From a bacterium (GTDB taxonomy: Bacteria > Patescibacteriota > Saccharimonadia > UBA4664), in assembly GCA_016699105.1 (NCBI GenBank), contig CP064960.1:593034-657033 (forward strand): 64,000 nt of DNA, in the 5' to 3' direction. The translations under genes were made by a program, and so were the position numbers. Of this stretch, positions 3,972-57,843 are shown in pieces. Below the pieces are notes generated by a model. The model searched no databases. It saw only the letters and a program-made list of their open reading frames with translations, and had not been told where the DNA came from. Position 1 is the first letter of the stretch. Each line of letters starts with the position of its first letter.

Positions 3972-4781
3972 ATGAGGGAAAAGGTGGCTCAGCAGACGAA
4001 AGTGTTGGCGTTAGCTAACCAGAAGGGTGGTGTGGGTAAAACCACAACCACAATTAATCTGGGTGCTTATTTGGCAGCTGCCGGACAGCGGGTGCTGATT
4101 GTCGATTTAGATCCTCAGGGCAATACTTCGAGCGGTTTGGGGCTTGTGACGAGTAAACTGCATGGTGACTTGTATGATGTGTTGATGGAAGATGTGGCGA
4201 TTGCGGCTGTAGTACAGGAGACCATCACTAAAGGATTGGCGGTAGTGCCAGCAAGTCCAATACTAGCAGCGGCAGAGGTGGAGATGGTGGCAGTACCTCA
4301 GCGTGAGTTTAAGCTTAAAAAAGCACTCGAAAACATAAAAGGAGAGTATGACTACATACTGATCGACTGTCCACCAAGTTTGGGGATACTCACTGTCAAT
4401 GGTTTGGTGGCAGCTGATGAAATTATTATTCCGGTTCAAGCTGAATTTTATGCGCTGGAAGGCTTGGGTCATTTGGTACAGACCGTGCAGCGCGTGCGGC
4501 GGGGCTTGAATCCGAAGCTCGGGCTTTTGGGAGTATTACTTACCATGCACAATGGCCGGACGACTTTGAGCACCCAGGTTCATGAGGAAGTCCGGCGGCA
4601 TTTCCCAGATAAACTATTTGAGACAGTTATACCGCGTAATGTGCGGCTGGCTGAAGCGCCTAGTCACGGCGTAAGCATAATGCAGTATGATGGGTGGAGT
4701 AAGGGTGCGCGCAGTTATAAAGCGCTGGCCAAAGAAGTGCAAAAAAGGGTGAAACAAGCAGAAAGGGTGACAACAACATGA
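3972..4781 (+). CDS. parA: Chromosome partitioning ATPase ParA/Soj
   Basis: Deviant Walker A NQKGGVGKTTT, LIVDLDPQGN, CPPSLG motifs. ATG at 3972 preferred over the GTG at 3963 of the ORF track. Confidence 0.9.
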   Translation: MREKVAQQTKVLALANQKGGVGKTTTTINLGAYLAAAGQRVLIVDLDPQGNTSSGLGLVTSKLHGDLYDVLMEDVAIAAVVQETITKGLAVVPASPILAAAEVEMVAVPQREFKLKKALENIKGEYDYILIDCPPSLGILTVNGLVAADEIIIPVQAEFYALEGLGHLVQTVQRVRRGLNPKLGLLGVLLTMHNGRTTLSTQVHEEVRRHFPDKLFETVIPRNVRLAEAPSHGVSIMQYDGWSKGARSYKALAKEVQKRVKQAERVTTT

Positions 4782-5728
4782 GTGAAATACGCAAACGCGG
4801 TTTAGGACGAGGTTTTGATTCGCTTATTCCTGAAGGAATGGTTGAAACTGAGTTTGACGTGACGGCACCGGTAGACGAGAGTGGTGCCAGAGTTAGTGGC
4901 GATACCATTCAACAACTTGACCCCTTTTTACTCGATCCGAATCCGCATCAGCCGCGTAAAAATTTCGAAGAAGCGGCTCTCGAAGCTTTGGCTGCAAGTA
5001 TTCGAGTACACGGGATATTGCAGCCGTTAGTTGCTACGCGGAAAGGTGACCGGTTCGAGCTGATTGCGGGTGAGCGCCGGTTGCGAGCCGCTCGACTAGC
5101 AGGTCTGACACGTGTTCCAGTGATTTTGCGGACGTTTGATGAACAGGAAAAACTCGAGCTAGCCTTAATTGAGAATATTCAGCGGGCTGAACTTAACCCC
5201 ATCGAATTGGCGACAGCTTATCGCAAACTAGCCGACGAATTTAATCAAACTTATGATGATATCGGTCAAAAAATTGGTAAGAGTTCATCGGCTATCGCTA
5301 ATACAGTGCGCCTACTCAACCTGAGCGCCGATGCTAAGCGCGCGATTGTTGACGGTATCATTTCAGAGGCACACGGGCGTGTGATCTTGTCGTTGGAGGA
5401 CGAGGATAAACGGGCCGAAATTTTGCGACTGATTCTCAAGTATAAATGGACCCAAAAACAAGCTGACGAATTTGCGCGAGGTTACCGCGGTCCCAGAGGA
5501 TCGAAGATGCTGGCGCAAGCTCGATTGAATGAGATAGAGGCTTGGCAGACTGATTTGGAAAAGTATCTTAATGCTTCGGTCAAACAAACAAGATTAGCTC
5601 GCGGTAAAGGCAAAATCATTATTGAGTACAATTCCGCTCAGGAACTTGACCGGATTTACCGGCTCATCCGTCACAATAGTGTAGCGTCAAAGCACCACGG
5701 CAGCGACGGTATCGTCAAACAGACGTGA
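4778..5728 (+). CDS. parB: Chromosome partitioning protein ParB/Spo0J
   Basis: ParB box GILQPLVATRKGDRFELIAGERRLRAARLAGLTRVPV with HTH. ATGA overlap with the parA stop. Confidence 0.9.
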   Translation: MSEIRKRGLGRGFDSLIPEGMVETEFDVTAPVDESGARVSGDTIQQLDPFLLDPNPHQPRKNFEEAALEALAASIRVHGILQPLVATRKGDRFELIAGERRLRAARLAGLTRVPVILRTFDEQEKLELALIENIQRAELNPIELATAYRKLADEFNQTYDDIGQKIGKSSSAIANTVRLLNLSADAKRAIVDGIISEAHGRVILSLEDEDKRAEILRLILKYKWTQKQADEFARGYRGPRGSKMLAQARLNEIEAWQTDLEKYLNASVKQTRLARGKGKIIIEYNSAQELDRIYRLIRHNSVASKHHGSDGIVKQT

Positions 5729-5744
5729 ATCTATAGATTTCAGT

Positions 5745-6538
5745 TTATAAAACTTTAACTTGATCGAGTGGCAAGAGTCGCAATACGGCATTGCCGATAA
5801 TGTAGCTTGAAGGTAGTTGACCCCATTCGCGGGAGTCAAATGAGGCGCCGGGTATGCGGTTGTCTCCGACCACGAAGACATTGCCTTTTTGGACGGTTTC
5901 ATCAACATTTCCCTGAGTACTTGTATCAGTACTTTCGTAGCTCGTATCGGGATCATAACCATCGGGGTGCTTGTCGTTGTAGACGGTTATTTTACCTTCT
6001 TTGACAACTACTCGGTCGCCAGGGACACCAATAACGCGTTTGACAAAAACTTCACTGGGTTTCTTGGGATAATGGAAGACGATTATCTGCCCAGCTTTGG
6101 GGATGTATGCGCTATCTTTATTGAAAGTTCTTTGGATCAAAGATGAAGTGTAGCCAATCTTGGAAACAATTAAATAATCGGCGTCGTGCAAGGTAGTGGA
6201 CATGCTACTTCCCATGACGTGATAGGCTTGAAAGACAAAAAATGAAGGACAAACACGACAGCCATCGGGAACAAGAACCATGAGGCGATAATGCCCATGA
6301 CATGCCAAAATTTACCAGCAACGTTGGTTAGTGTCCCAGACGCCGTTTCGACATCGGTGGTAGCCTGAATACCAGGACCTTGTACATCAGAAAGCGTTTG
6401 AGCCAGCATTGGTGACATGTCACTCGATGACGGAGTGGGTGGCGCCGGACGGACGGGTGCTGGGCTACCCTGGGCCGGTATAATTAAGCCGTCAGGACCG
6501 ACAACAGGCTTGCGAGATGGGTTAGTAGGTGAATCCAT
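5745..6538 (-). CDS. lepB: Signal peptidase I (LepB) with a 1-nt frameshift at an A6/T6 homopolymer (~6236-6241) separating the N-terminal TM segment from the catalytic domain
   Basis: Catalytic frame has FFVFQAYHVMGSSMSTTLHD (S box), VIGVPGDRV, GDNRIPGASFDSREWG (box E). The upstream TM helix GIIASWFLFPMAVVFVLHF sits in the adjacent frame (the 3' end of ORF 6170..6943). Adding one T restores ...VLHFFVFQAYHVMGSSM, matching B. subtilis SipS topology. The N-terminal Pro-rich extension and exact start are uncertain. Confidence 0.75.
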
Positions 6539-8689: not shown

Positions 8690-8862
8690 TGATACCTCAA
8701 GGAGTATTGGTTATAACGGCAATGGGATATTGTTTTGGCTCAATTTACATGTCGGCTCGAGCAGGCAGCTTGAGTCGCGGACGGTTGATGGAATTTCTCG
8801 CAATTGGGATCGTTATAATTATCATGGTTGTCTCAGGTACTTCTTGGAAAGGTGCCATATAA
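8689..8862 (+). CDS. Small (57-aa) membrane protein, unknown function
   Basis: ATG overlaps the upstream stop (ATGTGATG). AGGGGG RBS. Two hydrophobic helices. Confidence 0.35.
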   Translation: MIPQGVLVITAMGYCFGSIYMSARAGSLSRGRLMEFLAIGIVIIIMVVSGTSWKGAI

Positions 8863-8905
8863 TAGAATTGGTTAAGGATAACAGCTATTACTATAGTGAG
8901 GACGT

Positions 8906-10117
8906 ATGACAGATCGATTTGAACCATGGGAACATGAAAAGCGTGATCAATCGCCTCGTGCGGTTGATGTGGATACTGAAAAACCGGTTCAGCAGCAACG
9001 ATGGCATTTCCGAGCCATTCGCAATGCAGGCGTCATGGTGCTGGTGGGTGCATTGGCCGGAGCTGGCGGTGCTTATGGATATACTCATTATTTGGCAGCT
9101 TCGATTCCGGTAGATCGCAAACAATTGATTATTGAAGAGAGCTCGGCGGTGATTGATGTTGCTACGCAGCTTTCACCCAGCGTGGTAAGTATTACCTCCA
9201 AAACTGTCGCCCGGGGATTTTTTGGATACTCGCAGGAAGTTGAAGGGGCCGGTACGGGTATGGTTCTGACGGCCGATGGACTCATACTGACGAATCGGCA
9301 TGTGGTTGATGATACGACGGCTACTTATACTGTCGTCATGAACGACGGTAAAACGTACCCGGCGACGGTGGTCTCGCGTGACACCAAAAATGATGTAGCG
9401 TTCGTGCGCGTTGAAGCCAAAGATCTGACGCCTGTGAATATCGGAGATTCCGGTAAATTGAAAGTGGGACAACAAGTGGTGGCAATCGGAAACGCCTTGG
9501 GGCAATTCCAAAACTCTGTCACCGAAGGTATTATTTCGGGCGTATCGCGAGGAATTACCGCTGGTTCGGGGTCGGCTTATAGTGGCATGACCGAAGAACT
9601 ATCCAATCTACTGCAGACCGATGCGGCGATCAACTCCGGCAATTCCGGTGGTCCGCTGGTCGATCTGGAAGGTCAAGTGATCGGCATGAATACGGCGGTG
9701 GCGGGATCGGGAGCGCAGAATATTGGATTTGCCATACCGATCAATGACATTAAACCGTTAATTGAAAGTGTGAAATCAAAGGGACGGATCGTACGGCCGT
9801 ATCTGGGAGTGCGCTATGTTGCTTTGACGCGCCAAGTGGCTACCTTAAATAACCTAACAGTGTCTGATGGCGCTTGGATTCAAGCTTCAGGAGACGCTAA
9901 CCCAGGGGTTGTAAGTGGTTCACCGGCCGAAAAAGCCGGAGTCAAAGAGGGCGACATCATAACCAAGATTGGCGATGATACGGTTGATGCAACGCATAGT
10001 TTGCAGTCTCTCATCGGTAAATACAAAACTGGTGATAAGGTGAAGCTGACTATAATTCGCGATAGTGCGACAGTTACGGTTGAAGCAACATTGGAAGATG
10101 CGCCCGCCGGGAGCTAA
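8906..10117 (+). CDS. htrA: HtrA/DegP-family trypsin-like serine protease with C-terminal PDZ domain
   Basis: Catalytic triad context GLILTNRHVV, NDVAFVRV, NSGNSGGPLVD. N-terminal TM. PDZ domain near the C-terminus. GAGGA RBS. Confidence 0.85.
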   Translation: MTDRFEPWEHEKRDQSPRAVDVDTEKPVQQQRWHFRAIRNAGVMVLVGALAGAGGAYGYTHYLAASIPVDRKQLIIEESSAVIDVATQLSPSVVSITSKTVARGFFGYSQEVEGAGTGMVLTADGLILTNRHVVDDTTATYTVVMNDGKTYPATVVSRDTKNDVAFVRVEAKDLTPVNIGDSGKLKVGQQVVAIGNALGQFQNSVTEGIISGVSRGITAGSGSAYSGMTEELSNLLQTDAAINSGNSGGPLVDLEGQVIGMNTAVAGSGAQNIGFAIPINDIKPLIESVKSKGRIVRPYLGVRYVALTRQVATLNNLTVSDGAWIQASGDANPGVVSGSPAEKAGVKEGDIITKIGDDTVDATHSLQSLIGKYKTGDKVKLTIIRDSATVTVEATLEDAPAGS

Positions 10118-20638: not shown

Positions 20639-20654
20639 TTGGCTTTTTGACAAA

Positions 20655-20880
20655 TGCCGTTAAAACTCGGTATTCTTATGACACAAAGCAATGAAAGGGT
20701 ATCCCGCCCTGGAGCTGACGGCGACGAGCCGTTCCGGGTTCCGCCCGTTACTGCGGGAATTAAGGTCTAGGCTTTGTCCAGACAAAGACAAGATGGTACC
20801 ACGAGAAACGCCTCGTTCTTGTCCCAAAGTGTCCTATTTAATCGTAGGCGCGGAGTGGGTGAGAACGTTTTTTAATTCAA
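20655..20880 (+). promoter_or_regulatory. Candidate T-box riboswitch leader of proS
   Basis: ~230-nt untranslated leader before an aminoacyl-tRNA synthetase gene. Contains F-box-like CCGUUA (20745-20750). T-box-like AGAUGGUACCACGAG (20791-20805; consensus GGGUGGUACCGCG, UGGU bulge complementary to the ACCA end of tRNA-Pro). A possible antiterminator-strand hairpin CTTTGTCcagACAAAG. A short terminator-like hairpin ACGAGaaacgcCTCGT plus U-rich tail. Not folded or aligned computationally. Confidence 0.4.
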
Positions 20881-20895
20881 TTGGAGAAAAAGTTT

Positions 20896-22611
20896 ATGCG
20901 CATGACACAACTATTTGGTCGGCCGAGTAAAACTGAAGGAACTGATTATGAAATTGCTTCACATAAGCTTTTAGTTCAGGCTGGTTTTATCAGGGAAAGT
21001 ACGGCTGGACGTTACTTTATGTTGCCCCTGGGTATGGCAGTACATCACAAAGTAGCCGACATTGTCCGGCGCCAGATGAATAAAACTGGAGCTCAAGAAA
21101 TTGTGACCCCGGTGCTGCACCCCCTCGAGCTGTGGGCAGAGACGAACCGGACAACCACCGCCGGGTTTGAATTGATGAAAGTTCGAGATCGCCGAGGTGC
21201 CGATTTTGCCTTGGGTGGCACGGCAGAAGAAATGGCCGTCGATCTCGTGCGCAAGTTCAACTTGAGCTACAAAGACTTACCGTTTCAGGTGTATCAGTTT
21301 TCGATGAAGTTTCGTGATGAAATGCGGGCTCGAGGAGGCCTACTACGAGTACGCGAATTTGTGATGAAAGATGGGTATAGTTTTTCGACCAAAGAGCAAT
21401 TTACGGCTATTTATGACCGAATGCGGGACTGCTATACCGATATTTTTACTGAACTGGGATTAAAAACTGATGTGGTGGCCGCAGACAATGGTTATATTGG
21501 CGGAGAATACTGCCACGAATTTGTAGCGCCGGCCGAGAGCGGTGAGAGCCGGTATTTTGTGGATGAAAAAAGTGGCTACGCGGCCCATGAAGATGTGGCG
21601 ACATTTGTGCAGGAATCGCCAAACGATCATGAAACGCTGCGACCAATGAAGCCAATTGAGGCTAAACGCGGCCGAACTATGAAGGATGGTATTGCCCATC
21701 ACGGCTTGGAAGACTGGCGCCAAATCAAAGATGTTTTGTTTGTGGATGAACCAAGTGACCGCTATATTCTGGCAGTCATAAGGGGAGATCTGGATGTCAA
21801 TGAAACGAAATTGATGCAACTAGCGAAAGCTTGGGGTATGCGATTGGCTACCGATGACGAAGTCCGCCATGACGTCGGTAGTGAGCCGGGCTTCTTGTCA
21901 CCGGTTGGTATTGCTAAAAAAGGCATCAAAACTGGTCGCCGCATCGTTGTAGTAGCCGATGACAGCCTTAAACTTATCCATAATATGTATGGCGGTGCCA
22001 ATGCTAAGCACCAAGATCTGGTGGACATCAACTATGCCCGAGATTGGGAGCCGGATATTACTGGTGACATTGCCATGGCTAAAGCGGGCATGATGAGTAA
22101 TGAAGGCGGCAAATTGATCGAGCGGCGAGGTATCGAAGTGGGCAACATATTCCAACTTGGTTATCACTACACCAAGCTTATGAGCGGTGCTGAATATACC
22201 GATGCGTCCGGTGTCCGGCAGCCCTACTATATGGGTTGTTATGGGATCGGTATTGGCCGAACGATGGCTGCCATCGTTGAAGCCCATCATGATGAACGAG
22301 GCATCGTCTGGCCAGCGGCGGTCGCGCCATATGCGGCGACAGTGGTGAGGCTTGGCAATGATGAATCAATTGTAAAAGCGGCTGATGAGCTGGTAGTCAA
22401 AATGGAAGCCTCTGGAATAGATGTCTTATACGATGACCGTGATGTTTCGGCTGGGATTAAATTTGCCGACGCCGATTTGATTGGTTTGCCTTGGCGCATT
22501 ACGGTCAGTGCAAAAACCATAGCCGCCGGGAATAAGGCTGAACTGAAGCGTCGAACCGCTAGTGAAACGAACTTGGTAGACTTGGCAGCAGTGACGGCAG
22601 CTATCTCATAG
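20896..22611 (+). CDS. proS: Prolyl-tRNA synthetase (bacterial-type class II)
   Basis: N-terminus MRMTQLFGRPSK...SHKLLVQAGFIRESTAGRYFMLPLG with class II motifs. GGAG RBS 9 nt upstream of the ATG at 20896. Confidence 0.9.
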   Translation: MRMTQLFGRPSKTEGTDYEIASHKLLVQAGFIRESTAGRYFMLPLGMAVHHKVADIVRRQMNKTGAQEIVTPVLHPLELWAETNRTTTAGFELMKVRDRRGADFALGGTAEEMAVDLVRKFNLSYKDLPFQVYQFSMKFRDEMRARGGLLRVREFVMKDGYSFSTKEQFTAIYDRMRDCYTDIFTELGLKTDVVAADNGYIGGEYCHEFVAPAESGESRYFVDEKSGYAAHEDVATFVQESPNDHETLRPMKPIEAKRGRTMKDGIAHHGLEDWRQIKDVLFVDEPSDRYILAVIRGDLDVNETKLMQLAKAWGMRLATDDEVRHDVGSEPGFLSPVGIAKKGIKTGRRIVVVADDSLKLIHNMYGGANAKHQDLVDINYARDWEPDITGDIAMAKAGMMSNEGGKLIERRGIEVGNIFQLGYHYTKLMSGAEYTDASGVRQPYYMGCYGIGIGRTMAAIVEAHHDERGIVWPAAVAPYAATVVRLGNDESIVKAADELVVKMEASGIDVLYDDRDVSAGIKFADADLIGLPWRITVSAKTIAAGNKAELKRRTASETNLVDLAAVTAAIS

Positions 22612-24624: not shown

Positions 24625-25788
24625 TTAGTGAGAGGGACTTAAAAGTACTCCGGACAGAATCGAACGGGCTTGAGCCATCAAATGCTCGACATCGGCTTCG
24701 GTGATGCCTATGGCATAGGTTATGGCTTTGCCAGTGCCCAACAGACGTGGTCCAACGGGCAGGATTCCGGTATACCCATCAAACAGGATGCCTGCCGCCC
24801 GATATAGGTCGTGTATTCTCGGCCACGTGAGATCTGTCGCACAAGGTAAATTGTCACTCATGATGACTAGTGGTGCACCATGATGGCGTAATACCTGGGC
24901 CAAGACCGCCAGCGGGTACATAGCTCCAGTTACACGTCCATTGGCCTCAAGGACAAACAATTGACTTCGGTGTTCACCAGTATCTGGTCGTATGAAGTCA
25001 AAACCGATATACCCACGGTAGCCGAGTCGGTGCAATTCACCAGCGGCAATTAGCGCGCGTTGGACAAGGGCATCGATGGTTGATGGATTCAAGCCTGTCG
25101 TAGCTGATGTTGAAATGACGTTGCCATTATGGGTACTTTGATTACCGATGATTTGCCGGGTGATGGCTAGAAACTGCGGTCCACCTTCGGTAATTTCCAG
25201 TTGCACCGAAAATGACGAATGTGGCATGTAAGCACGTTCGACGATAATTTCATCGGTATATCCCGAGTCGGTCAACCGACTAAGCAGTTGAGACAACACA
25301 ACAGGCCAATTCTTCTGGTTGACGATTTCAATACCTTCACCGGTTGCCAGGTTGGCGGCTTTGACGGCGGCCGACTGGTAGCGCTTGGTGTAGGCTTCAC
25401 CCGACTGCGCAATGGCGATACGTTGCTGGAAATCGTGTGTGGAGTGAGCCGGAAAGGAGATTTGTCCCCACCCTTCAAAATGCCGTCTAAGCCAGCCTTT
25501 GTGGTTGACTTGGGCTGCAAGTTTAGGTGATGGTCCCCAAACCACATTTTGGTATTGGTGATTCAAGCTATCCACCAAGTGCCGGACGCTGGCCGTCGGC
25601 AGGAAAAACTCGAAGAGTTGGCCGTGTTTGAGATCGCGCAGCATAGCAGCTGGACAACTAGCCAATAGCGTACCCGTCACCGGTACTTGGATTACCCGGC
25701 CATGGGCTGGCGCACCGATGTCGACTCGTGCTAGAAATTGCAGATATCCGGGGTCGATGCCATCGGCAATGACGACGGTGCCGGGCAT
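24625..25788 (-). CDS. ATP-grasp superfamily ligase, unknown substrate (start uncertain; the ORF extends to 26127)
   Basis: C-terminal ATP-grasp signatures GYRGYIGFDFIRPDTGE and FVLEANGRVTG (E-x-N Mg-binding motif). The Met at 25788 was chosen because the 26127 start overlaps mreB. Confidence 0.55.
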   Translation of the reverse strand: MPGTVVIADGIDPGYLQFLARVDIGAPAHGRVIQVPVTGTLLASCPAAMLRDLKHGQLFEFFLPTASVRHLVDSLNHQYQNVVWGPSPKLAAQVNHKGWLRRHFEGWGQISFPAHSTHDFQQRIAIAQSGEAYTKRYQSAAVKAANLATGEGIEIVNQKNWPVVLSQLLSRLTDSGYTDEIIVERAYMPHSSFSVQLEITEGGPQFLAITRQIIGNQSTHNGNVISTSATTGLNPSTIDALVQRALIAAGELHRLGYRGYIGFDFIRPDTGEHRSQLFVLEANGRVTGAMYPLAVLAQVLRHHGAPLVIMSDNLPCATDLTWPRIHDLYRAAGILFDGYTGILPVGPRLLGTGKAITYAIGITEADVEHLMAQARSILSGVLLSPSH

Positions 25789-26199
25789 AAGTAACGCCCG
25801 GTCGGCATAATGGCCCAAACCGGCATTCTCTAAACTCGGGTATGGATCCCGCACGTCGTGGACGCGAAACAGGTTAGAACTGAGAAATTGGGCGCTGTTG
25901 AGGTCAGTACTCAGGGGCAGCACGTGAGCTCCTCTCGCTAAATTTGCAAGGTACGAGTCCAAACGAAAACCGCTCCGGTAAGGGAGCGGCGGCGGTGAAG
26001 CGTTGGTTTGGTTTAGACTAAACGCGACCAGCCACCACACGGCAGCAAAATAATCTCGACCAAACGAGCTTGGCGGTTGATTAAGCTGATAGTGGTTGCG
26101 GTCATGGGGACAGTTTACTGGCAGCATGGGGTCAACGTCAAGCTAAACGGAACGTACTTACCTTGCTCCTATCTGCAGGCGACTGGTACACTGGAGGGT

Positions 26200-33623: not shown

Positions 33624-34925
33624 ATGATTGACGTTCGACTACTACGCGACCAACTTGATGCCGTCAAGGCTGCTGCCCAGCATAAAAATGCTGAAATTAG
33701 TGCGGCCCAAATTGATGAAGTATTGGGACTTGATGGTCGCCGGCGCGAGCTACTGACTCAAATCGAGGAATTGCGTCGGCAACGAAATGGGCTGACAAAT
33801 GCTATGTCTGGTGCCAAGCCAACATCAGAACAAGTGACACAAGGCCGGGCTCTCAAAGAAGAGCTAAGTGTGTTGGATGAAGAATTTGGCAAGGTCGATG
33901 AACAGTATATGAGACTGATGAAGCTCATACCAAATCTGCCGACGGGTGACGTACCAATTGGAGCTACCGAGGACGAGAATGTCGTAGCTAAAACCGTGGG
34001 TAAGCCGCGTGAGTTTGATTTCGAAATATTGAATCATTGGCAAATAGGTGAGCGTCGAGGATGGATAGACAAAGAGCGAGCTGCCAAGGTATCCGGTTCC
34101 CGCTTTGCGTACCTAAAGGGTGAGCTGGTGCGCCTGCATATGGCAATGATTGCATTTGCCATGGACGTTTTGACTGATGAATCTGTTTTGCAGCGGATTG
34201 CTGCAGACGCCGGGTTGAAAGTTAGTACGAAACCGTTTGTACCGGTATTACCGCCGCTCCTCATCAAGACTGAACCTTATGACGCTATGGATCGTCTCGA
34301 ACCACGCGAAGACCGCTATAAGATCGAAGGCGATGAATTGTGGCTGCAGGGTAGTGCTGAGCACGTCTTGGGTTCAATGCACGCCAACGAAATAGTGCCG
34401 GAAACAGAATTGCCAATTCGCTATGCCGGTTATGCCACCAGTTTTCGCAAAGAGGCAGGTACATACGGCAAAGATATGGAAGGTATCTTGCGATTGCATC
34501 AGTTCGACAAGCTGGAAATGGAGTCATTGACGACCGCTGAAGTCTCGCGCGATGAACATCTGTTTTTGATAGCAATTCAAGAATACTTAGTGCAGCAACT
34601 GGAAATCCCATATCAAGTAGTCATGAAATGTACCGCCGATATTGGCAAACCTAATGCCCGTGGCGTGGACATCGATTGTTGGCTACCAGGTCAAGGAAAG
34701 TATCGTGAAACCCATACCGCCGATTACATGACCGACTATCAAGCTCGGCGACTACAGACCCGAGTGCGCCGCACCAGTGGAGAAGTGGAGTTAGTGCACA
34801 CCAACGATGCCACTGCCTTGTCGCAACGACCTTTGATTGCATTATTGGAGAACCATCAGCAAGCCGATGGCACCATCAAAGTGCCAAAAGCGCTCGTGAA
34901 ATATTACGGTAAGGAGGTAGTGTAA
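33624..34925 (+). CDS. serS: Seryl-tRNA synthetase
   Basis: N-terminal coiled-coil arm (MIDVRLLRDQLDAV...) and class II core. A TATAAT box lies 7 nt upstream of the ATG, so the mRNA may be leaderless. Confidence 0.85.
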   Translation: MIDVRLLRDQLDAVKAAAQHKNAEISAAQIDEVLGLDGRRRELLTQIEELRRQRNGLTNAMSGAKPTSEQVTQGRALKEELSVLDEEFGKVDEQYMRLMKLIPNLPTGDVPIGATEDENVVAKTVGKPREFDFEILNHWQIGERRGWIDKERAAKVSGSRFAYLKGELVRLHMAMIAFAMDVLTDESVLQRIAADAGLKVSTKPFVPVLPPLLIKTEPYDAMDRLEPREDRYKIEGDELWLQGSAEHVLGSMHANEIVPETELPIRYAGYATSFRKEAGTYGKDMEGILRLHQFDKLEMESLTTAEVSRDEHLFLIAIQEYLVQQLEIPYQVVMKCTADIGKPNARGVDIDCWLPGQGKYRETHTADYMTDYQARRLQTRVRRTSGEVELVHTNDATALSQRPLIALLENHQQADGTIKVPKALVKYYGKEVV

Positions 34926-56451: not shown

Positions 56452-57843
56452 GCAGTAAGTTCCTTTTGACAGAGGTCGGCAAGATTTTTAATACTAATGC
56501 GTTGTTGTTCCATGGTGTCACGGTGGCGTACGGTGACAGTGTGGTCGGTAAGCGTATCAAAATCAATAACCCACACAAGGGGTGCCAATTTCATCTTGAC
56601 GGCGATAGCGTTTGCCAATATTACCGTTATCGTCGTAAACGACATGGCCAAATTGTTGTTTTAATTGTCGATAGACAGTTTGAGCTTGCTCAACCAGCTC
56701 GGATTTGTTACGTAGGAGAGGTGATACAGCGATTTTGATTGGTGCAAGTTCCGGTTTAAACTTGAGGACTACCCTGGTATCTCCCTCCCCGATGGTTTCC
56801 TCATGGTAAGCAGCAGCTAATACAGCGAGAAAATGTCGGTCGAGGCCAAATGTTGGCTCGAGGACGTGCGGAATATACTTTTCGCCAGAGGTTGGGTCAG
56901 TATAGGACAAATCGACTCCGGAGGCTTTGGTGTGATTGGATAAATCAAAATCGGTGCGATAAGCGATAGCGCCAAGTTCTTTGACGCCAAAGGGAAAAGC
57001 ATACTCAAGATCGATGCTTTTCTTGGAATAATGAGCCCTGTCGGCGGCGGGAACATCAAGTTCATGGATATCGGCTTTAGCCAGACCAAGCCGCTCAAAC
57101 CAGGTGTAATACAGTTCCATGAGTCGTTTAAACTCCCCTTCCCATGAGTCGGGCTTAATGAAATATTCAAATTCCATAATTTCGAGTTCACGGACGCGAA
57201 AAATGAAGTCTTTGGCGGTTATTTCATTGCGGAAGTTCTTGCCTATTTGGGCTAACCCAAATGGTAGCCTGGGGTGAAGGCTATCGAGGACATTTTTGAA
57301 GTTTACGAACATTCCTTGAGCAGTCTCAGGTCGTAAATAGACGCGAGCGGAGGTGTCGTCGACCGGTCCGATCTGCGTTTTGAACATCATATTAAACGTG
57401 CGCACATTGCTTAAGGCATTTCCATCAGGGCTTTTAAGCTTCAATTCCTTAATTTTGGCATCCATTTGAGGCACTGTTAAGCTAGCGGCGTCATCAACGC
57501 CGTTATCTTCAAGTAAATGGTCGGCGCGGAAGCGTTTATTGGTAACTAAATCTTCCACTAATGGATCTTCGAATCCAGCGCCGGTATGGCCACTGGCTTC
57601 CCAGACGCGCGCGTTCATCAGGATGGCTGTATCTAGACCGAACATATTGTCTTGTTCAGTCACGAAATGCTTCCACCATAAGTCTTTGATATTGTTTTTG
57701 AGCAGGACACCATATGGGCCATAGTCCCAGGTGCCGCCCAAGCCACCATAAATCTCTGAACCTTGGAATATAAATCCTCGCCGCTTGGTTAGTGCTACAA
57801 GGGTTTCGAGGGTGACATGTGAGGTCTGTTTCATGGTGTGCAT
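56448..57843 (-). CDS. glyQS: Glycyl-tRNA synthetase (alpha2, eukaryote/archaeal-like GlyQS), split by a frameshift at a G/C homopolymer (~56579-56582)
   Basis: Class II core in ORF 56563..57843. The C-terminal anticodon-binding part (IDFDTLTDHTVTVRHRDTMEQQRI) is in ORF 56448..56651. The junction DEIGTP|LVWVIDFD parallels human DEIGVAFGVTIDFD. Confidence 0.85.

Follow-up and report, generated by a model that had tools for sequence, protein, structure and literature searches.

A predicted tRNA(Pro)-responsive T-box with an ultrashort Stem I and an intrinsic terminator upstream of proS in a bacterium of the Saccharimonadia

Four classes of T-box RNA have been distinguished. Classes I and II carry a long Stem I with a double T-loop platform that binds the tRNA elbow, and they act on transcription; in classes III and IV, exemplified by actinobacterial ileS leaders, Stem I is short or of intermediate length, the platform is missing and control is 'mostly' translational (PMC10482949). 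Class III displays the Specifier in an apical loop of 5-6 nt and depends on Stem II (PMC10482949). The 'ultrashort Stem I' ileS leaders of Nocardia farcinica and Mycobacterium tuberculosis (Sherwood et al. 2015, as cited in PMC10482949 and PMC7583486) are placed in this class. Translational T-boxes have been described as having a shorter Stem I, without the elbow contact that speeds the first step of tRNA binding (PMC11297988), and a transcriptional switch has been held to need the platform for fast co-transcriptional capture of tRNA (PMC7583486). On this review view, a platform-less transcriptional design should work poorly (PMC7583486).

The reported distribution of T-boxes is similarly circumscribed. 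The discussion of phyla that accompanies the T-box database TBDB names only Firmicutes, Actinobacteria, Chloroflexi and Deinococcus-Thermus (PMC7778990), and our literature search returned no paper joining T-boxes with Saccharibacteria, Patescibacteria, the candidate phyla radiation, Parcubacteria or TM7. A few transcriptional leaders with a short Stem I may already be recorded in the earlier T-box literature.

The leader described here precedes proS in a bacterium of the Saccharimonadia (TM7, Patescibacteria; candidate phyla radiation) and lies in a 64-kb stretch of DNA that was analysed as a whole, hereafter the window. A first-pass annotation had proposed a T-box in a Patescibacteria-type genome, and this placement agrees with the closest relatives of the encoded ProRS, which at 89-75% identity come from MAGs bearing the name Candidatus Saccharimonadales or Saccharimonadia, with other Patescibacteria next in line. 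The gene encodes a bacterial-type proline--tRNA ligase whose product scores 561 bits against its NCBIfam model (cut-off 558), and it follows the gene order rpsB-tsf-frr-uppS-rseP and then a CPBP protease gene. The untranslated leader had been put at 230 nt. It does exist, with other dimensions: the gap between the end of the CPBP gene (20638) and proS measures 257 nt (20639-20895), and the transcribed leader, counted with the conserved promoter, is about 213 nt long.

The promoter scores 10/12 in a consensus scan, and transcription is predicted to start near 20683. In four orthologous loci (L001, L002, L003 and L008) the string TTTGACA is invariant and the TAnnnT form of the -10 element is retained. 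No tRNA(Pro) gene was found in the window or in the 60 loci examined. Downstream of proS, the window also holds an open reading frame of 499 aa (24625-26127, -) that has no NCBIfam match at E <= 1e-10.

Features of the proS leader and its surroundings, with positions counted from the first nucleotide of the window
Feature	Positions	Strand	Sequence or basis
Promoter	20647-20676	+	-35 TTGACA 20647-52; spacer 18 nt; -10 TATTCT 20671-76
Ultrashort Stem I	20688-20715	+	Infernal alignment; basal pairs G20688-C20715 and C20689-G20714
K-turn strands	20690-95 and 20711-13	+	AAUGAA and GGA; aligned by Infernal to T-box K-turn columns
Stem I 4-bp helix	20696-99 with 20707-10	+	AGGG with CCCU; Infernal alignment
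Stem I apical loop, 7 nt	20700-06	+	UAUCCCG; shrinks to 5 nt if U20700-G20706 pair (RNAfold)
Specifier (Pro)	20703-05	+	CCC, followed by purine G20706; 3' end of apical loop
Stem II hairpin	20717-20733	+	GACGGC, pentaloop GACGA, GCCGUU
Stem IIA	20735-37 with 20745-47	+	CGG with CCG; Infernal alignment; 3 pairs covary
Stem IIB	20739-44 with 20753-58	+	loop UUCCGC with GCGGGA; 6-bp complementarity
F-box	20745-50	+	CCGUUA, exact; placed by Infernal in F-box columns
RAG purines	20762-64	+	AAG; 5' part of discriminator
Stem III	20765-20783	+	loop CUUUGU; Infernal alignment; AAAGA 20784-88 after it
Antiterminator	20789-20821	+	A1 CAAGA with UCUUG; A2 ACGAG with CUCGU
T-box bulge, 7 nt	20794-20800	+	UGGUACC; UGGU 20794-97 complementary to tRNA 3'-ACCA end
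Intrinsic terminator	hairpin 20814-20867; U6 20868-73	+	54-nt hairpin, -23.3 kcal/mol
Shine-Dalgarno	20883-86	+	GGAG; outside terminator hairpin
proS	ATG 20896, end 22611	+	bacterial-type proline--tRNA ligase, NCBIfam PRK09194

A search with Infernal in E-value mode matches the leader to the Rfam T-box model (RF00230) at 20682-20823 (+) with 51.2 bits, spanning model positions 1-219, at E = 2.2e-10 locally and 2.9e-8 for the whole 64-kb window. RF00230 is the sole Rfam family with E <= 1 anywhere in the window, and at the leader no other Rfam family appears even at E <= 10. At curated thresholds, Rfam yields zero matches in the 64-kb window. The score lies below the Rfam gathering threshold of 93 bits because 74 positions of the Stem I model are replaced by 5 nt, and the shortfall comes from this missing part of Stem I rather than from poor matching elsewhere. 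The four orthologous leaders score likewise, at 37.7-50.7 bits. The RF00230 scan recommended in the first-pass annotation thus returns a significant match, though one under the gathering threshold, and the alternative it had raised, a different RNA family, finds no match. Judged from its sequence, the leader is a genuine T-box match, above chance.

The alignment assigns a complete, compact decoding arm to the region downstream of the predicted start. The letters of the putative K-turn (GC-AAU-GA / GA-GC) are invariant in 14 leaders, which is sequence evidence for this fold, and all four pairs of the Stem I helix change on both sides across 96 distinct related leaders (see below). The distal double T-loop platform for the tRNA elbow is absent, its place in the model falling within the 74 positions reduced to 5 nt. 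A CCN specifier codon followed by a purine had been sought in Stem I, and CCC-G is indeed present, displayed by an ultrashort Stem I that had not been foreseen. Only when the codon and its purine are read as the last four letters of the loop do the relatives' loops UCCCCAG, AUUCCUA, CUUCCCA and UUUCCUG yield Pro. Other registers, namely UCC (Ser) and CCG followed by C, were considered and rejected, as they do not give Pro in relatives.

Stem II is a hairpin of 4-6 bp in which an S-turn internal loop is not recognisable. Its inner four pairs covary in a MAFFT alignment that is independent of structure, 6/6 pairs covary in the model-fitted alignment of 96 distinct leaders, and a pentaloop of the form GA[U/A/C][G/A]A is present in 25/32 Pro-type leaders. 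A family-wide test of Stem IIB, based on the longest complementary run, is weakly positive (mean 3.99 vs 3.63, sd 0.10). The F-box proposed earlier is real where Infernal places it, within the pseudoknot region; a second copy of the motif, CCGTTA at 20657-62, near the start of the piece first annotated, was rejected as an F-box, sitting as it does in the promoter spacer. Further downstream, the purines, Stem III and the adenosines that follow it correspond to the discriminator motif 5'-RRRxG-Stem III-AA-3' (PMC7583486), and Stem III varies in sequence among orthologues with its pairing maintained.

The T-box-like string AGAUGGUACCACGAG at 20791-20805 had been read from the outset as an antiterminator with a UGGU bulge. 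This reading is borne out: Infernal aligns the antiterminator with high posterior probability, and it is the minimum-free-energy fold of its segment (-7.1 kcal/mol). The 5' arm of the terminator is the 3' strand of the antiterminator, the common sequence being CGUUCUUG. The overlap and the U-rich tract are therefore as first described, but the hairpin is not the short one envisaged, and the U run ends 22 nt before the proS start. For transcriptional T-boxes, TBDB gives mean energies of -7.4 kcal/mol (sd 4.2) for the antiterminator and -19.5 kcal/mol (sd 7.9) for the terminator (PMC7778990 supplement), and both energies of the leader fit within these values. The top pair of A2 (20801/20816) is A-U in all leaders found with the search pattern described below, where the consensus has G.U, a wobble pair that has been described as the steric sensor of the aminoacyl group; two leaders, L028 and L203, have G at this place.

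Set against the described classes, the leader combines a decoding arm like that of class III with a terminator switch of the class I type. With the class III ileS leaders it shares a short, platform-less Stem I with a basal K-turn, a Specifier plus purine on the 3' side of the apical loop, a Stem II, a IIA/B pseudoknot with the F-box, and a discriminator made of RAG, Stem III and the UGGN bulge. It differs from them in having an intrinsic terminator instead of a Shine-Dalgarno sequestrator, and in belonging to proline and proS in the Saccharimonadia, whereas the class III hosts are Actinobacteria. The apical loop has 7 nt, or 5 if its end nucleotides pair, compared with 5-6 nt in class III and 6 nt in the Ile-type relatives described below, and the small Stem II hairpin with its GANRA pentaloop contrasts with the long, S-turn-bearing Stem II of class III.

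With class I (tyrS of Bacillus subtilis; RF00230) the leader has in common terminator/antiterminator control with matching energies, an aaRS gene as its target, the K-turn, the Stem II region, the F-box, Stem III and the T-box sequence. Unlike class I, it carries no S-turn Specifier internal loop, AG bulge or distal loop above the first helix, its elements from Stem I up to and including the antiterminator take up only about 140 nt compared with the 219-position model, and its A2 helix starts with A-U, not G.U. Class II, represented by glyQS, is likewise transcriptional and reduced in architecture, but in the opposite sense: glyQS keeps a long Stem I with the platform and drops Stem II, and the proS leader does the reverse.

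Related leaders were sought at several distances. The four orthologous loci, whose ProRS are 75-89% identical to that of the window, keep the whole leader and promoter, with compensatory changes. In the more distant Saccharimonadales proS loci (in L004-L011, ProRS identity 64-68%) the leader is absent. Metagenome contigs were scanned with the antiterminator pattern CAAGRTGGNACCACGAN{4,8}CTCGTYCTTG, which matched at least 120 stretches. The innermost A1 pair, the R/Y pair of the pattern, is G-C in 85 and A-U in 11 of the distinct leaders and mismatched in none, where the pattern permitted mismatches; the rest of the antiterminator was fixed by the pattern itself and hence does not vary.

A custom covariance model was built from 14 Pro-type leaders with the structure given by hand. 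It scores the leader of the window at 135 bits, finds no second copy there and aligned 99 + 30 matches. Together, the scan and the model give at least about 125 related leaders. The model also places leaders before proS or pro operons at L022, L024 and L028, three more loci from Patescibacteria genomes; L028 belongs to Levyibacteriota and has the arrangement proB-proC-proS. In 20 further loci every short-loop leader scores under the Rfam cut-off, so routine annotation would not list them.

The proposed helices were assessed by covariation in two alignments. In the MAFFT alignment, which is not fitted to structure, 92.6% of cells are paired, eight pairs change on both sides, and the covariation score is 0.186 vs 0.096 for shuffles (reached by 0/500) and 0.021-0.102 when the partners are slid. 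When the 96 distinct leaders are aligned to the model, 94.3% of cells are paired, 17/25 pairs change on both sides, and the score is 0.229 vs 0.073. In this second alignment, two-sided changes are seen at every pair of Stem II, of IIA and of the upper helix of Stem I.

An apical Stem I loop of 5-8 nt occurs in 78/127 parsed leaders, among the matches listed. Pro-type loops include UUUCCCG, UCUCCCG, UCCCCAG, AUUCCUA and CUUCCCA, Ile-type loops include AUAUCA/G, UUAUCA and CUAAUCA, and a Ser-type loop reads UGUUCCG. Among the matches listed, an amino acid was expected for 66 short-loop leaders, and in 58 of them, including 31 cases of Pro and 26 of Ile, the loop codon agrees with the gene that follows; with shuffled gene labels the agreement averages 27.9 and never exceeds 39. 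The eight discordant leaders are failures of Stem I parsing at contig ends or cases of ValRS labelled as IleRS. By Pfam, the genes after Pro-type leaders encode both types of ProRS, glutamate 5-kinase, P5C reductase, ornithine cyclodeaminase, ornithine aminotransferase and an ArgZ-like arginine dihydrolase; Ile-type leaders are followed by IleRS and the Ser-type leader by SerRS. The bulge reads UGGU in leaders for Pro, Ile, Ala and Tyr and UGGC in those for Asp/Asn and Ser, a split by amino acid that agrees with the usual discriminator bases of the tRNAs.

These features make it very probable that the leader is a T-box through which tRNA(Pro) attenuates transcription of proS, where the binding of tRNA, the sensing of its charging and the regulatory outcome are predictions from the sequence. 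The nascent RNA would fold into the K-turn, a 4-bp Stem I displaying CCC and its purine, the Stem II hairpin and the IIA/B pseudoknot, and the anticodon of tRNA(Pro), presumably GGG, would pair with CCC. Since the distal platform is absent, the tRNA would have to be captured, in the manner of class III, by the groove that Stem I, Stem II and the pseudoknot form together. An uncharged tRNA could pair through its 3'-ACCA end with UGGU and stabilise the weak antiterminator against the stronger terminator with its U6 tract, allowing RNA polymerase to continue into proS. A charged tRNA could not pair with the bulge, in which case the terminator would form and transcription would stop ahead of the start codon.

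A T-box with the same arm might instead act on translation by hiding the ribosome-binding site, as in the actinobacterial leaders of classes III and IV. Every T-box so far characterised that carries its Specifier in an apical loop acts on translation, and classes III and IV are said to 'mostly regulate translation initiation' (PMC10482949); in addition, some high-GC short-loop leaders found in the same scan (e.g. L107 and L114) have no U run. At proS, however, the U6 tract directly follows the hairpin, and the GGAG of the Shine-Dalgarno sequence lies 16 nt past the hairpin and is unpaired in both folds. The base helix of the terminator and the U run are kept in six orthologous leaders; in the four closest, the upper part of the hairpin varies yet still pairs. 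More broadly, 86/115 related leaders, vs 3/115 with shuffled downstream sequence, have a hairpin that uses the antiterminator's 3' strand and leads into a U run, and so do 56/58 of the codon-concordant short-loop leaders; in the remaining two, L024 and L168, a terminator is visible by eye beyond the criteria of the scan. Translational control of proS by this leader is on this evidence improbable.

The low Rfam score and the 74 missing model positions would also be expected of a decayed T-box that has lost the distal region of Stem I, with proS simply expressed from the promoter it has, through a leaky terminator, and the many other Saccharimonadales and Patescibacteria proS loci that have no leader could be taken to suit such a history. 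But the same architecture recurs in the 78 short-loop leaders, where the helices covary and the loop codon follows the identity of the gene, and orthologues whose ProRS have diverged by 11-25% show little or no change in the Specifier loop, K-turn, F-box and bulge. By these comparisons the short Stem I is a design, not recent damage, and a remnant seems quite improbable. It is harder still to credit that the region is a small protein-coding gene, a member of another RNA family or the terminator of the upstream gene. Open reading frames do overlap the leader (20691-20930, +, 79 aa; 20660-20827, -, 55 aa), and stretches of similar length are open in relatives; the check by longest open stretch is uninformative. 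Against coding, the orthologues differ by single-nucleotide indels within the conserved block, and the substitutions in helices are compensatory. The wider Rfam search speaks against another RNA family, and the CPBP gene has a terminator-like hairpin of its own at 20626-43.

The first-pass annotation had suggested looking for similar leaders at other aaRS genes, and the two in the window, serS (33624-34925, +) and a dimeric-type glyS (56563-57843, -), have no T-box that either Rfam or the custom model detects; within the 64-kb window T-box control is confined to proS. Elsewhere, the named relatives that carry leaders are Patescibacteria. The IleRS behind one Ile-type leader (L100) is closest to proteins named Pacebacteria, Nomurabacteria, Parcubacteria and Paceibacterota, the ProRS of contig L093 is closest to those of Colwellbacteria, Buchananbacteria and Paceibacterota, and in a Candidatus Parcubacteria MAG (GCA_041158645.1; L203) ileS is preceded by a short-loop leader of the Ile type.

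The custom model finds no T-box in the ileS loci of Nomurabacteria GW2011_GWB1_35_20 and of one Paceibacterota MAG. In a scaffold with a Colwellbacteria-named ProRS and in a Saccharimonadales MAG with an archaeal-type ProRS, only 6 and 67 nt, respectively, lie before proS, and the room is therefore too small for a T-box. The presence of T-boxes in Patescibacteria is thus patchy, a pattern that bears on whether they were inherited from an ancestor common to Gram-positive and Chloroflexi lineages or were transferred.

The evidence is evenly balanced on a broader proposal, that these RNAs form a large undescribed group in Patescibacteria (Saccharimonadia, Parcubacteria-type lineages and Levyibacteriota) that combines a class III-like arm with a terminator and controls proS, ileS and genes of proline synthesis. 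If this is true, Stem I would not have to touch the tRNA elbow for tRNA to be sensed co-transcriptionally, T-box regulation would be part of the repertoire of the candidate phyla radiation, and annotation at Rfam thresholds would overlook a whole group, the curated cut-off being a blind spot for short-loop leaders. The mechanism family itself is textbook; it is the architecture that is at odds with the stated platform rule, and these leaders appear to be widespread in a radiation with hardly any described regulatory RNA. Dozens of natural leaders that combine an apical-loop Specifier with a terminator make this kinetic rule, under which a short Stem I is acceptable only in translational control, testable with RNAs of about 190 nt (PMC7583486, PMC10482949, PMC11297988). 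With the leader, a predicted regulatory RNA of defined ligand specificity is added in lineages about whose gene regulation very little is known, and riboswitch-type parts are being sought there as genetic tools (PMC11665869).

Several observations were made on contigs that carry related leaders. The Patescibacteria-like metagenome contig L093 has two T-boxes, at 5222-5516 (-) and 8776-8944 (-). One of them has a long Stem I and scores 100 bits, above the Rfam cut-off, and is followed by open reading frames for a DAHP-synthase-like protein, prephenate dehydrogenase and an aminotransferase; T-boxes may therefore be annotated in some such genomes. The other is a short-loop Pro-type T-box with ArgZ-like, ProRS and tRNA_bind genes downstream, and the contig encodes a PF01588 tRNA-binding protein at 5562-5906 (-). 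Stand-alone tRNA-binding proteins of this family (CsaA/Trbp111-like, about 111-120 aa) are also the first or an early gene after the leader in L160, L190, L090 and L123. The position of PF01588 proteins under Pro-type T-boxes or in ProRS operons suggests a role linked to proline or tRNA(Pro).

In L137 and L144, short-loop leaders are followed by genes for membrane proteins of 86-92 aa. The L137 protein matches SemiSWEET/MtN3 (PF03083), and the L144 protein, which has no Pfam match, is similar by tblastn. The loop of L137 reads AUC-A (Ile), and the annotation as a sugar transporter is at odds with an amino-acid signal. Many Patescibacteria relatives of IleRS have a PF00300 histidine-phosphatase domain inside or beside the class I synthetase domain, examples being L201 (4280-6265), where the gene is called as two overlapping open reading frames, and L202 (3001-4788). 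Finally, the contig of L116, which bears a Pro-type leader 5' of a GNAT acetyltransferase gene, also contains a DUF3800-II RNA motif at 4339-4418 (-) that scores 65 bits (cut-off 43.2).
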